Shown here one piece after another: positions 21,001-27,000 of a stretch of DNA of 64,000 nucleotides. Every line of letters starts with the position of its first letter. Position 1 is the first letter of the stretch. The stretch lies in assembly GCF_053078305.1 (NCBI RefSeq), contig NZ_CP166879.1; one strand, written 5' to 3'. Position numbers: made by a program.

Positions 21001-24000
21001 ATCAGTTCTGATAACAACAAAACGCCATCACTGATGGTAGCATATACGTTGCCACTGTAACTCCTGACGGAACAGTGGCAGCGTTACATGACGCACGGTG
21101 TCTGGTCGAAGTGACCGTCCAGGCGGTCACTGAACTCGATAATAAAGCAGCTCATTTCCATACGCCAGTCCTTCAACGGCATCGTCCATTTCTGGGACGC
21201 AGACTGGATTGCCAGCCACACAACTTTTTTCACCGCCTCGTTTGTCGGGAACACTTTACGCTTTTTGATCGCATGGCGGATCACGCTGTTTAGCTACTCG
21301 ATGGCATTCGTCGTATAGATCATTTACATATACCTGCCCCACTGATGTCTGTAACCCCCGACTCGGTGGGGCAGATTTCAGAAAGTATACCTGCCAGACA
21401 ATATATATTCCCGTCCTGCAGCCTGATAGCCATAACCAGTCTCATAATCTTTGTTGAACAGATTAGCTATTTTACCGCGAACTATCAGGTGAGGAGTGAC
21501 CGGATACGCAACCGCAACATCCCATAAACTCACACCGCCCATTTTGACTGACTTATAGGGCCAGGATGAGTAGTCCGAATCGTATCGCGATCCCATATAT
21601 TGATAAGTTATCCCCCAGTCAAAATCGAACACTTGCCAGTCAAGTTGATACTTCACTTGCAGTTTTGGACGACGTTCCAATGGTTTGTCAGTTAAGGCAT
21701 TTCTGGCATCCATATAATCGTAACTAACAGTATGCGTCAGTGCTCCTGTATCAAAGTTTACTGTAGCCTCAATTCCTTTAATGTGTACTTTTCCGTCGTT
21801 GTAATAACGAAGGGTATGAGGATTATAGTTAATCATTTCACTGATATAATTACGGTATCCTGAAATACGCCAATTTACGCCCCCAGTTAAACCTTCAAAT
21901 GCCCCTTCCCACTGTTTACTCTTTTCCGGAGCCAGATTCGGATTACCATACATACCATATAGCTGCCCCAGATTTGGCGCTTTGAAAGCAGTTCCATAGG
22001 AAGCGATAAAGCGATAACCCTCAATAAACTCCCATCCCGCACTGGATTGCCATGTTGTGTGGCGTTCAAATTGCGAGTTGTCGTCATTACGCACCGCGCC
22101 TTCTAACGTAAAATCGCCAAGTTTTTGCAGTCCTGTCAGATAAATCCCCGTGTTACGCTGATCGTAACCTTTTGGCAGATATCCAGTTCCAGGTGAAGTG
22201 GATTGTTTTTGCCAGTCGATACCAGCGCCAACATTACCGTGGCCGACTGTGACGCTATTTGTCCACTGTAGATTGTATTGTTTCATCTCATCCCGGTTAG
22301 CTGATGTGTCATAGCGTCCATAATGTGGATCGTAGTTGTAATCTTTACTATGGCTATAACTGGAAACAAGTTGAGATTGCAGTGTTTCACCAGCGTAGCG
22401 AAGACCTGCATCCCAGCTTTGACTATAAAGTTTTCGAGTATCAATCAGTGGAGAACCGGGAGAGTACCAGGCGTCATATTTAGTTCGGTTATCATAGCCG
22501 TAGCCACGAACAAATCCGCTCCACGTATCAGATAAGTTATGTTCAAGTTTGCCATAGAATGTTTTACTTAAAAAACCGTCTCTGTCTGACTGTGGTTGCA
22601 TCCCTGTACTGCCATAGGCAACAGCATCAAACCCCCTAGTATAGGTATAATCACCAAGAAGTGTTACACGGGTATTTTCACCAAGTTGCAGATGAGTGGA
22701 TATATCGTAATGTTGATAACTATTACTTCCCCATCCTGCGGAAATTTCAGTGCCAGTATTCTCACGGGATGTAATAATATTTATCACTCCGCCAATGGCA
22801 TCTGAACCATAAATTGCTGAACGTGGCCCACGGATATATTCTATACGCTGCACTAAAGCGACGGGAAACTGACTCAGGTCTGCAGCTCCACTGACACCCG
22901 CTAAATTCAGGCGCACTCCATCAATCAATACCAGAGTGTGGTTAGAGTTTGTCCCACGAACAAAAATTGTTGAGAGCTGCCCTTCACCCCCATGCTGAGA
23001 AATTGCAACGCCAGGCAAACGACGCAGAACATCATTTACAGAAGAAACCTGCCAGCGATCTATATCTTCTCGTGTCACAATAGTTACAGGAGCAAGCACG
23101 GTACTTAATGGTTCCTGAAAACGGTTAGCAGTAACAACGAGAGTATCCGGAGGGGTATCCTGTGCCCAGACAGAAAAGGCTGTGACGGAATACACCATTA
23201 GAAACCAATATTTTTTAATCATTGTAACGCATCCACAACAGAAGAAGAATATCGCAGTTACCATCGATAGTAAGTGATGATGAGAACCAGATGCGACGTT
23301 AACCGACAGGTCTTCAGACCTGGAAGGGCATCTGAAGATACAAAGAGATGATGATGCCCCCCCACCGGATGACCGTGTCCACATTACGCAATCATCGCAC
23401 CTTTCCTTACCGCTGCGTGTCAGTTTCGGATTCGCACTGGATTCCCTATTAACTCGCAGGACCGACAACTGGATATTACTGGTTGTAACAAGTTACTGTC
23501 CATACATGACTCAAAAATAGGAATGCATGAACACTCGGATCTAATACACATAATATTTTATCGGCGACCATAATAAGAATAAAACATATATATGCTCAAT
23601 TAGTTCTTTGATAGATTTCATATTAAAACCAGTAGAGCCATTCAGCGTGCAGAAAATAAACAATATAATTCTGTCACCAGAACATCCATACCTAAGCTCC
23701 AGTACTTACCAACTTCAGAATCCCATTCTTATCGCAATTGCATGAGCAGTATCTGATTGAATAATGTAAACACCAAATGAGGCCAAATTATTCAGACATT
23801 AAACTAGAACGCCAGTTTGTCTTTCGTTATTCTCAGGTACATTAGTTATAACCTGTTCCGCTCCCAATATACTCGCTAAATAGTAAATCAATGCATTAGC
23901 TCTGCTCGTGTGACTAAAAATCAAATTAATCACATACTGGCCACACTCATCAATAACCACTACCGCTGGAGTGCTGAATTTATTGTTGACCTGAGATGAC

Positions 24001-27000
24001 AGAGCCTGAATAGCTATATCTGTAGAGCCAATAAAAATCAGTACCGAATAGTTCGTGTATGCTTCTCGTACCGTCTGAACAAAACCACAGTTACAAGGTA
24101 AAAATCCATCTTCAAGCAAATTTTCGCAAGTAAAGCAGGTTATCGGCAACGTTTCTGCCAGTTGTTTTGCAAGTTGACCGCCTCTTGGGGTCAGGAAAAA
24201 CAGAGCTATAGACTCAGGTTTAACTATACTCATAGATAAAATCCATAGTATTTAAATAGTAACTCGACTTGCCGGGGGACATTCCGACAAGAATTAGCGC
24301 CATTTTAAGAATCTCTACAGCAGATTTAGTGAATCTCACCCTCTCAATTAATCGCTTGTCCAGAGTGTCAAAATCGGTGGAAAAACGAGCCAGCAATTTA
24401 AGAATTGGTCAATACATCCAGATTCTTTACGCACATTTCATGTATAATATCTCTAATATAATCATCTGTTCTCTTCAGCCTATATCGACTATCAACCTCT
24501 GATAATTCTATAAGTACTCTGACACGAACTGTAACTTCAACTTTCCACACAGAATTCCCCAGACAACATCCAACCAGCACTGTGAAAATCTTCCATACCT
24601 TAACTAACCATTCAAACCATCGATGGAACATATTCGCCACCATTAATCCCACCATGATATTGCCCATATAACTCCGACCACCACCAGACACATCACCTCC
24701 ACAGCCAATACGTAACACGCGCCCACTTTGTTGCTTCTGGCGAATAATCCGCTGAATAATATCGATAAAATTGCACACAGGTACAGTCAGTCCGGTGTCC
24801 CGGAAATAACAAAATCAACAAAATGCACCACACACCACACAAGAAATGTAATAACATACTTATTGCCACATTCAACCATCCGATAATCATCATTAATTGC
24901 TGGAAAAATGTATATGAAGATAACCAGGGAAAGTATTTCCCATATGTCTGCAACCAAACTATTGTTGAAATATCCAGTGTCCTTGACCCACGATATTCAT
25001 ATCTGCGTATGATTTTCCCATGCTCAACCAGAAATATCAGATGAGTAACTGGCTCCTCACAGTAGCCGAGGCAAACCAGACATTTTGCTATTTTGATGCG
25101 TTCCCCAAAAATATACGCCACAGGATGAACGGAACCACGGACATCCTGATGAGTTCTACAGGGATATATCGACTCTCCACATTCAGCATAAATCGCTACA
25201 CAATATGCATTAGTTAACCACCATTGGGCATGCATACCTGTATTCGCAATAAGTGTGGTAACGTAGAATCTATCTACTGTCACATCACTACTAATACAGA
25301 AGCTGTCAGTTCCTGATTTACACTGTTGTGTACGCAAACATCGTTTGACCAGTGGGCTTAAGCTGAGAATTAATGTGATTTTTTCACAGCAGTTACAGGT
25401 AACTGCCCAAACGAACGCCTGAAATCTTGTTGTCATACCCTGCTCCTTGCAGGGTGGTAGGGGTATGAAGAAGCATCTGTACAGACTTTCGGCTGTACAA
25501 TTCTGACTCAACCCACTTCCCACCGAAGTTGTTGAAAATCACCGACAGGCAGGTCTTCTGGCTTAGCTTCTTCCTCACCCGCCCTTCCCAATCTTACGAT
25601 CAGTGGTAATTACGGGGTTGTCAGCATCACAGCAGCGGGGGCTGCGGGGGATTTTCACCCCCTTCCCTGGCATAAATACGCCAAACCTGTCAGGTTATGT
25701 TATGAGCTAACTATATTAGCTCACAACAATTAAATTTTATTAAATATAAATAAAACTACTCTTATCCAAATGGATAATTAACCTCAATGCTTTATTTCAT
25801 AACTAAAATAACACTTGCATAGTTTATCCCAGGAACACTACTATTTTGTTGACCTATGACAATTTATTTCTTCTCTCTGATTTTTATTTCAGATCTAATA
25901 AAATGCCACATATTATAAAAACCGGAAATGGCAAATTATTGTCATTCATACCGATTCCGCAGGCTTGTTTTCTGCAATCTGCTGGCGAAATGCCTGCGGG
26001 GTAATCTGATAAGTCTGGCGAAACACTTTGCAGAAATAGCTGGTTTGCGAGAAACCTAAATTACGCGCAATGCTGGCGATACTCCAGTCACTATAGCAAA
26101 GCAACTCTCGAGCTCTTTCCATCCGTTGCTGATTGACCCATGAATTGAAACCTATTCCCTGATATTTCTTAAACACCCTACAGAAATAGTGTGGACTGAG
26201 ATACACATGTGAAGCAACATCTTCCAGACGCAGGTCATCAGACAAATGAGCATCAATGTAGCGCAACGCTTTTTTCATTTTACTGTCATGGGCATTCGGT
26301 GTACGATTAGAATAAATAGGCTCCTGTAATTTCTGGCTGTCTTTGATCACTACAAAACTAAGCTGTTTTTTAAGGCAGTTTTCAACTATCAGTTTCAGAA
26401 GATCGGCTGCAGCCATCACTCGCGAATAGTCCATTTCAGGAACTTTTCTGAACGCATCCAATAACTGTTGATCAGTCTGCCAGCACTCGTCAACATTGAA
26501 GATGTTAACCAACCCTGCATCACTATAGTCGCGTAAACGAACCTGCCCACACAATACAAACCCGACCAGATGACCCGCAATAACTAAAGGAACCGAAAAA
26601 TCAGTTAACCCGGCATGGCAGCGATAAATACAAGGCTGGTCCAATTTCGAAGCCTCCAGACCACCACAACGATCACTCATACGGCACCGAGCACTCAACT
26701 GTGGGTTCTGCCGCATTAACTGACAAAAGGGAGTGAAATTAAAAAACTCAGAAATTTCATCACCATGAATATTGACCACGACAACAGCCAGACTGGTAGC
26801 TCGAGCAAAATCCTGCGCGATTTTATTAATGAGATCAGAATTTAATGCACTCGCAGAAATCATGATGAACCCCAGGTCAATTATATTTATTACATTTACT
26901 TCACATTATTTATAATATATTTACACAGGAGTAAACATAAAGGACAATATCAAAAACTATCGCGTTACAGGGAGACTTTTTCTCACATCGGGAAGCAGAT

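Follow-up and report, generated by a model that had tools for sequence, protein, structure and literature searches.

The 64,000-nt stretch of contig NZ_CP166879.1 (NCBI RefSeq assembly GCF_053078305.1) analysed here, hereafter the window, carries an intact pocR gene, the regulator of the pdu (propanediol utilisation) and cob (vitamin B12 synthesis) operons. Downstream of pocR, in the position of the cob operon, lies a cobalamin riboswitch followed by a short tract of decayed cbi fragments, here termed the cob ghost (Table 1). All ghost coordinates are on the minus strand of the window. The tract is covered by four open reading frames (ORFs; 25523-24693, 24778-24398, 24396-24220 and 24233-23799) with overlapping or abutting ends, the long ones encoding 276, 126 and 144 amino acids (aa). 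A first-pass annotation, made from the DNA alone, had described decayed fragments of cbiA, cbiB and cbiG at this place. The window was searched by tblastn with the Cbi proteins of three intact pocR-cob operons (L015, of Citrobacter amalonaticus type, L016 and L017), which had been reached through PocR homologues; a Yersinia operon (L003) was used as well. All three fragments were recovered, with E-values reaching 2e-12, 4e-14 and 1e-52 respectively. The earlier list was nevertheless incomplete, as the tail of cbiF is also present and possibly that of cobS. The remnants of cbiA, cbiB, cbiF and cbiG (cbiA', cbiB', cbiF' and cbiG') are collinear with the intact operons, including that of C. amalonaticus type, and all lie on the same strand. 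Given their synteny, the loss of catalytic motifs, the deletions and frameshifts inside them and substitutions of a neutral type, the region is very probably what is left, in non-functional form, of the cob operon from cbiA to cobS.

Table 1. Features of the cob ghost and its flanks in the window, with the corresponding segments of native Escherichia loci in their own numbering.
Feature	Sequence	Position	Strand	Evidence
pocR	window	25946-26863	minus	Intact; NCBIfam TransRegPocR 529.9 bits (cut-off 500); upstream boundary of the former cob operon
pocR-cob intergenic region	window	25706-25945	minus	Partly alignable with intact operons; 21/93 reference-conserved sites changed
Cobalamin riboswitch aptamer	window	25531-25705	minus	RF00174, 108.2 bits, E 7e-27, model positions 1-189/189
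Expression platform	window	25437-25530	minus	3/48 conserved sites changed
cbiA' N-terminal remnant (aa 1-45)	window	25436-25305	minus	tblastn E 2e-5 to 9e-5, 44-49% identity
cbiA' C-terminal remnant (aa 304-459)	window	25271-24852	minus	tblastn E 1e-10 to 2e-12
cbiB' (aa 1-122)	window	24852-24497	minus	tblastn E 4e-14 to 3e-9; remnant extent taken as 24400-24852
cbiF' tail (aa 224-254 of 257)	window	24312-24226 (ORF 24220-24396)	minus	tblastn E 0.005-0.017, 48% identity
cbiG' (aa 1-137 of 351)	window	24233-23823 (ORF 23799-24233)	minus	tblastn E 1e-44 to 1.8e-52, 55-62% identity, gapless
Possible cobS' C-terminal tail (last 26 codons)	window	23648-23571	minus	tblastn E 0.005, 42% identity, ends at CobS residue 247
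Second cobalamin riboswitch, btuB leader	window	23288-23481	minus	RF00174, 45.5 bits; also annotated in E. coli LPA islands
Second btuB	window	21378-23240	minus	NCBIfam BtuB 1038 bits; directly downstream of the ghost
Native leader/cbiG' locus	L001	19435-20000
Native leader/cbiG' locus	L018	11260-11830
Native leader/cbiG' locus	L019	11300-11902
Native leader/cbiG' locus	L021	7260-7826

The cbiA remnant consists of two parts between which about 258 codons (aa 46-303) have been deleted. Both CbiA blocks quoted in the first-pass annotation are real. The P-loop GTGSGCGKTT now reads VTCNCCEKIT, destroying the ATP-binding motif, and the glutamine amidotransferase (GATase) block VAIYAECGG has become VAIYAECGES, in which the cysteine of AECG is kept. 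The histidines of LHVHF are gone from the frame of the cbiA' ORF (-1), the segment surviving out of frame (-2) as LHIHF. The P-loop and intact GATase domain that mark a functional CbiA are thus lacking, and the match to the NCBIfam CbiA profile is weak (E 8e-7, 28 bits against a cut-off of 254). Three-frame translation places a compensated pair of frameshifts near 24980 and 24895, with GNTFPGYLHIHF of cbiA' in frame -2 and WLNVAISML back in frame -1; indels across cbiA' are net frame-restoring. The native cbiA stop has been lost and the ORF continues to 24693. By the same translation, cbiB' has suffered at least three frameshifts, homology following the frames -3, -2, -3, -2; residues 123 to approximately 150, matched to CbiB by eye and not by a computed alignment, are presumably also represented.

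At its syntenic position the cbiF' tail is identical at 47 of 67 reference-invariant sites, defined as positions identical across all three intact operons (768 in the coding remnants); the part with firm homology is 24226-24312. The end of cbiF' and the beginning of cbiG' overlap by 14 nt, compared with 20 nt in intact operons. The cbiG' ORF is open over 144 codons but lacks the middle and C-terminal domains of CbiG. It matches the NCBIfam cobalt-precorrin-5A hydrolase profile (E 1.7e-47, 162 bits, cut-off 546) at profile positions 1-137 of 351, and Pfam detects CbiG_N alone (E 3.5e-20), so that a full-length functional CbiG is not encoded. No cobU, cobS or cobT gene was found in the window by tblastn with the intact-operon proteins. 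Support for the cobS' tail is marginal: its nucleotide identity of 46% is equalled at 9-11 of 127,846 window offsets. The cbiB', cbiF' and putative cobS' pieces went unrecognised by NCBIfam profiles at E-values up to 10, and homology searches of 24313-24396, of the linker 25272-25304 and of 23649-23822 found nothing. Scans for repeats, promoters and terminators were uninformative except for a hairpin in the leader. Alignment with the intact operons shows that large deletions have taken cbiA aa 46-303, the stretch from mid-cbiB through the end of cbiF, and everything beyond cbiG codon ~137. The surviving cob fragments total about 1.6 kb, and about 15 kb of the operon is missing.

The G+C content of the remnants is 36-43%, against 58-62% in the intact orthologues (40% for cbiG', where intact cbiG has 60-62%). 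Changes were found at 232 of the 768 reference-invariant sites (30%), 161 of them from GC to AT and 32 from AT to GC. Coding-strand rates per site were 0.32 for C>T, 0.20 for G>A, 0.115 for G>T, 0.07 for C>A and 0.10 for AT>GC, with C>T and G>T in excess and a significant asymmetry between C>T and G>A (p=0.004). Per site, GC>AT change exceeds AT>GC 3.3-fold, implying an equilibrium G+C content of about 23%, and each G/C site of the ghost has undergone approximately 0.43 substitutions. Intact genes of the island on which the ghost resides have the same GC>AT bias at their synonymous sites. The Cys/Trp-rich ORFs remarked upon in the first-pass annotation are explained by this decay, which converts Arg CGY and Gly GGY codons to TGY. 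Cys and Trp make up 10.5% of the 276-aa ORF, new Cys codons deriving from Gly GGY (7), Arg CGY (4), Ser and Phe, and new Trp codons from those of Arg and Leu.

Codon positions were compared using the island's own intact genes pocR, pduF, pduB, pduC and pduG as a control. In these, 4.5% of first, 1.4% of second and 31.5% of third positions were changed; in the ghost the corresponding values were 28%, 24% (p=1e-47 for the second position) and 49%. First and second positions of the ghost taken together were changed at 26%, near the third-position value of the intact genes. With codon-position rates this close to neutral, the ghost has lacked protein constraint for most of the time since this lineage parted from its nearest sampled relatives. 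Eight near-identical copies of the island (99.6-100% identical over 20 kb, L009 being identical) were aligned and the cbi remnants compared within 23400-26000. The island in assembly GCA_000736735.1 matches at 100% over 20 kb. Inside the remnants the copies differ only by an additional base pair at 25276 and a 7-bp deletion at 24835-24841, which are found in copies L013 and L011 and both shift the frame; the other differences are two single-nucleotide polymorphisms at the 3' end of pocR (25964 and 25984). Frameshift polymorphisms in cbiA' and cbiB' among present copies argue that there is no current constraint on these frames. The comparison with intact genes shows the remaining pieces to have evolved essentially without protein-level constraint for a long time and under GC-to-AT mutation pressure. 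Judged from this load, the ghost is an old pseudogene rather than a recent one. Bacteria usually delete dead DNA quickly; the tract is an unusually old bacterial pseudogene and offers a clean natural read-out of a neutral mutation spectrum.

In the first-pass annotation, the minus-strand elements AGGGAA and ACCACTG had been taken as possible signs of a degraded cob leader riboswitch. Both belong to a full-length cobalamin riboswitch at 25531-25705, ACCACTG being the B12 box (25601-25607). The term degraded does not apply to it, since it scores 108.2 bits against a gathering score of 31.5 bits for RF00174, matches the full model and is changed at only 9 of 146 reference-invariant sites. In the expression platform, a predicted 7-bp hairpin at 25455-25437 (ACCCUGC-AAGGA-GCAGGGU) encloses the Shine-Dalgarno sequence AAGGAG immediately before the cbiA' AUG (25436-25434). 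This hairpin is conserved in all eight loci of the leader alignment, comprising the island leader and seven others, with a fold z-score of just -2.1. A hairpin enclosing the ribosome-binding site (RBS) before the cbiA AUG is the arrangement of translational control in Salmonella cbiA.

Riboswitch and platform together are changed at 12 of 194 sites (6%) against the 30% of the ghost (Fisher's exact test, p=4e-14). Conservation ends at the cbiA' AUG, where the coding remnants start directly after the platform, and the 81-83% similarity to native Escherichia leaders likewise ends precisely at the AUG. The island riboswitch is not near-identical to that of any sampled relative. On this comparison, the riboswitch and its RBS-sequestering hairpin have evidently been held by purifying selection throughout the decay of the genes they precede. 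Upstream, the intergenic region 25706-25945 is probably the former cob promoter region; a consensus promoter scan gave no minus-strand matches within it.

The pdu loci of E. coli, E. marmotae, E. albertii and E. fergusonii carry a smaller cob ghost of their own. It comprises an intact riboswitch (107.8 bits in E. coli), a leader ORF of 44-49 codons, which begins with the cbiA AUG and has a cbiF-like tail at its end, followed by a cbiG' ORF of 144-156 codons. The leader stop and the cbiG' start overlap as ATGA in E. coli, E. marmotae and E. albertii and by 20 nt in E. fergusonii. Where cobUST has been retained (E. coli, E. marmotae) it follows the native ghost. The ratio of non-synonymous to synonymous substitution (dN/dS) of the native cbiG' ORF was 0.37-0.40 in E. 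coli, E. marmotae and E. fergusonii, E. albertii being left out, compared with 0.02-0.09 for real cbiG. Truncated alleles of 83-119 aa are frequent, among them a Shigella dysenteriae cluster of 96 aa on 93 contigs. NCBI annotates the native ORF as 'cobalamin biosynthesis protein' or as hypothetical. Island and native cbiG' are 39% identical. In a phylogeny of four pdu proteins, a sister relationship of the two loci received 53% bootstrap support, too little to decide for or against a common origin of the two ghosts.

A split cbiG was also seen in an intact Yersinia-like cob operon from a Logan assembly (L020, 10001-11097), where it forms a 128-aa N-terminal ORF and a 229-aa ORF for the middle and C-terminal parts, as a result of either a recent frameshift or a sequencing error. 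The 128-aa CbiG_N protein P0003, considered as another ghost, was rejected as such because it is a split cbiG within an intact Yersinia-like operon.

For the relic as a whole, a further property has to be accounted for. Stop codons were simulated for the unambiguous cbiA', cbiF' and cbiG' segments, cbiB' being left out. Neutral simulations predict 10.6-12.6 in-frame stops in these segments and none is present (joint P 1e-6 to 1e-5). A stricter test, confined to conserved sites at which a single step creates a stop, predicts 5.8 where none is seen (P 0.003). Together with the conserved riboswitch, the absence of stops hints that translation or transcription through the ghost may have been under selection. 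An intact riboswitch before dead, stop-free genes thus presents a testable case of selection on read-through and not on protein.

One explanation, to which we would assign somewhat less than an even chance, is that ghost and riboswitch are junk without a present or recent role and that the frames are open by chance. The riboswitch would then have been conserved through the slow decay of a structured, GC-rich RNA or through refreshment by recombination. The frameshift indels segregating among near-identical island copies and the multiple frameshifts of cbiB' are as expected of junk, as is the frequency of truncated cbiG' alleles in native Escherichia, and the openness of cbiG' taken alone is insignificant (chance P 0.11-0.15). 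Less readily explained is that the rate of change, 6% before the cbiA' AUG, jumps five-fold to 30% at precisely that point (p=4e-14), since a boundary this abrupt is not predicted by mutation alone. A recent import of the riboswitch is unsupported, no near-identical riboswitch having been sampled. The joint probability of stop-free frames (at most 1e-5 in simulation, 0.003 in the strict test) and the net indels of cbiA', all of which restore the frame, also count against pure junk.

A second explanation, offered tentatively and regarded as less likely than the first, is that the dead cbi genes were kept open as a translated spacer for the expression of genes downstream. Under this scheme, translation controlled by the B12 riboswitch would begin at the cbiA' AUG and pass on through the overlapping or adjacent ghost ORFs. 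The translated ghost would shield the PocR-activated transcript from termination by Rho, allowing it to reach a downstream gene. On the island this gene would be btuB, whereas the donor and native Escherichia would have cobUST in that place. No intrinsic terminator was predicted between the ghost and the btuB leader. A residual role of this kind would account for the stop-free frames. If correct, the ghost operon would be a regulatory conduit through which the uptake or salvage of B12 is coupled to signals from propanediol and B12, and the same logic would account for the leader ORF and cbiG' ORF of native Escherichia with their overlapping stop and start.

Several observations weigh against such a role. 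The statistic for the missing stops was formed post hoc and varies with model and alignment, the alignment of the C-terminal part of cbiA' being weak. Continuous translation is broken by the frameshifted cbiB', so that re-initiation would be needed, and the polymorphisms in cbiA' and cbiB' indicate no current constraint on the frames. A separate riboswitch and promoter-like sites serve the island btuB, which works without the ghost in strains that carry only the LPA-type island described below. The analogous native cbiG' ORF has many truncated alleles (83-119 aa), and the cobS' tail lies at the margin of significance. Any polarity effect on btuB, or on a former cobUST, is purely hypothetical.

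It is improbable that cbiG' is a functional stand-alone protein of the CbiG N-terminal domain with a new role, the other fragments being junk. The 144-codon ORF is intact and gapless against CbiG, its first and second codon positions are changed at 19% against 31% in the other segments (p=0.002), and a homologous ORF of 144-156 codons with an overlapping start occurs in four Escherichia species, with a dN/dS of 0.37-0.40 in three of them. Against this, the changes at 19% of sites invariant in functional CbiG have the same GC>AT spectrum as those in the dead fragments, the frame could have stayed open by chance (P 0.11-0.15), and a dN/dS of approximately 0.4 is far above that of real cbiG. Truncated native alleles are frequent, the S. 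dysenteriae cluster included, island and native versions have diverged to 39% identity, and we know of no activity attached to CbiG_N alone. That the ORFs are intact genes of an unrecognised family, or the product of a single burst of deaminase-type hypermutation, is suggested by their length (276, 126 and 144 aa) and by C>T being the commonest change but is effectively refuted, since the Cbi homology is significant and switches reading frame inside the ORFs, profile searches give no family matches except Cbi, the changes are spread over a broad spectrum without a single signature (per site G>A 0.20, G>T 0.12, C>A 0.07, AT>GC 0.10), and the GC>AT bias extends to synonymous sites of the island's intact genes. 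The reading of the tract as a relic of the cob operon would make it an ordinary old pseudogene; the curiosity lies in the intact, evidently selected B12 riboswitch before dead, stop-free frames.

The relic resides on a mosaic island. Positions 1-23605 of the window are approximately 98% (97.9-98.6%) identical to annotated E. coli islands of the LPA (locus of proteolysis activity) type, with espI, an AraC regulator, iha and btuB, and contain the espI-iha-btuB block that characterises this pathogenicity island. The LPA is known from Shiga toxin-producing E. coli (STEC) negative for the locus of enterocyte effacement (LEE), as described by Schmidt et al. 2001 according to passages citing that work in PMC9729726 and PMC6174562. 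The middle segment, comprising the ghost, pocR, pduF and pdu, shares no more than about 80% identity with the pdu locus native to E. coli. From approximately 50000 to 64000 the window matches E. coli cdiA-type DNA at 96-98%; an insertion sequence IS4 transposase fragment and a gene for a 2300-aa cdiA-type contact-dependent inhibition toxin (57031-63933) lie within 50093-63933. This last segment indicates that the island is a mosaic of several modules. The comparison with Salmonella drawn in the first-pass annotation holds for the position of the cob operon but missed the context, in which a pdu module of foreign origin has been joined, on a mobile island of E. coli, to an LPA-type block with a second, riboswitch-controlled btuB.

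The first-pass view that B12 synthesis has been lost while a complete pdu operon is kept agrees with the dead cbi remnants, the lack of cobUST in the window and the intact genes from pduA to pduW, the last of which lies at 42950-44146. From its gene content, the island would confer B12-dependent use of propanediol and uptake of B12, without B12 synthesis. A STEC-associated mobile island combining propanediol catabolism with a B12 receptor would be relevant to the gut fitness of LEE-negative STEC. Neither the cbi ghost nor an LPA island with pdu was found described in literature searches, and pdu is unmentioned in the LPA literature searched.

The G+C content of the island btuB is 44%, like that of the foreign pdu module and unlike that of typical E. 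coli genes, and the gene may have come from the same donor. E. coli islands with the LPA only share 23500-23605 at 98% identity and diverge thereafter. The cobS' match straddles the junction between the ghost and the LPA-type block (23605/23606). If it does so as a true remnant, this would mean that the LPA btuB once adjoined the cob ghost and that the LPA-only islands are deletion derivatives.

In a search of 5.8 billion proteins with PocR and cbiG', the nearest PocR outside the island was 84% identical and none lay between 84% and 100%, from which it follows that the donor lineage is unsampled. The exact cbiG' protein was found in 71 index blocks with E. coli contigs, and the segment is present in many draft assemblies of this species. 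By megablast and blastn, the 5,426 complete RefSeq genomes of E. coli were all without the ghost, their matches being limited to the riboswitch (approximately 81% identity) and a 106-bp LPA junction piece. Among GTDB species representatives, the cbiG' peptide matched just the cbiG of Yersinia and Tolumonas at 52-53%, and the representative of the source species is without the island. G+C content at third codon positions in the island's intact genes is 6-15 points below that of the references. Decay probably took place in an unsampled enterobacterial donor lineage of somewhat lower G+C content, and we infer that the relic reached E. coli recently with the pocR-pduF-pdu module on the mosaic island.

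Other features of the window were recorded. The left part of the island contains an integrase gene (3865-5127), a gene for a 1171-aa SF1 helicase-like protein (5579-9094) with weak matches to the anti-phage PLuB/ProA/Hhe helicase models, and one for a CptA-like phosphoethanolamine transferase (9203-10702). Downstream of pduW there is no pduX; in its place is an ORF of 117 aa (44179-44532), which, by eye only, resembles the N-terminus of PduX. This ORF may be another relic of accessory genes for B12 synthesis, although NCBIfam gave it no support even at E-values up to 10. It is followed by a transposase-like ORF (44621-45067, IS66-like by eye) and an IS21 IstB fragment (45340-45969). The small RNA STnc230 (Rfam, 73.6 bits) is present in the native E. 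coli pocR-pduF intergenic region (L001, 21329-21412), and the corresponding island region (26864-27066) gave no Rfam match to it at E<=1.

Intact cob operons of the Salmonella, Citrobacter and Klebsiella type have the order pocR, cobalamin riboswitch, cbiABCDETFGHJKLMNQOP-cobUST. The island has kept their gene order, orientation, riboswitch, RBS hairpin and the positions of the cbiA/cbiB and cbiF/cbiG overlaps, but differs in having fragments, frameshifts and destroyed catalytic motifs, a G+C content about 20 points lower and no cobUST in the window. With the native Escherichia ghosts it shares an intact leader up to the cbiA AUG, the cbiF tail, the first ~140 codons of cbiG held open and the overlapping start, as well as several derived residues in cbiG' counted by eye on the alignment; both loci keep pdu without de novo B12 synthesis. 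Unlike the island, the native ghost retains next to nothing of cbiA' and cbiB', and cobUST still lies downstream in E. coli and E. marmotae. Neither the cob ghost nor the pdu module accompanies the LPA in complete genomes of E. coli, and its similarity to the window ends at 23605. Riboswitches that control translation can be coupled to Rho-dependent polarity, as for Salmonella mgtA and E. coli ribB, and Salmonella cbiA and btuB are under translational control. The island resembles such systems in its intact aptamer, its predicted RBS-occluding hairpin, the long ORF directly downstream and the lack of a predicted intrinsic terminator; it differs from them in that the ORF under control is a dead gene.

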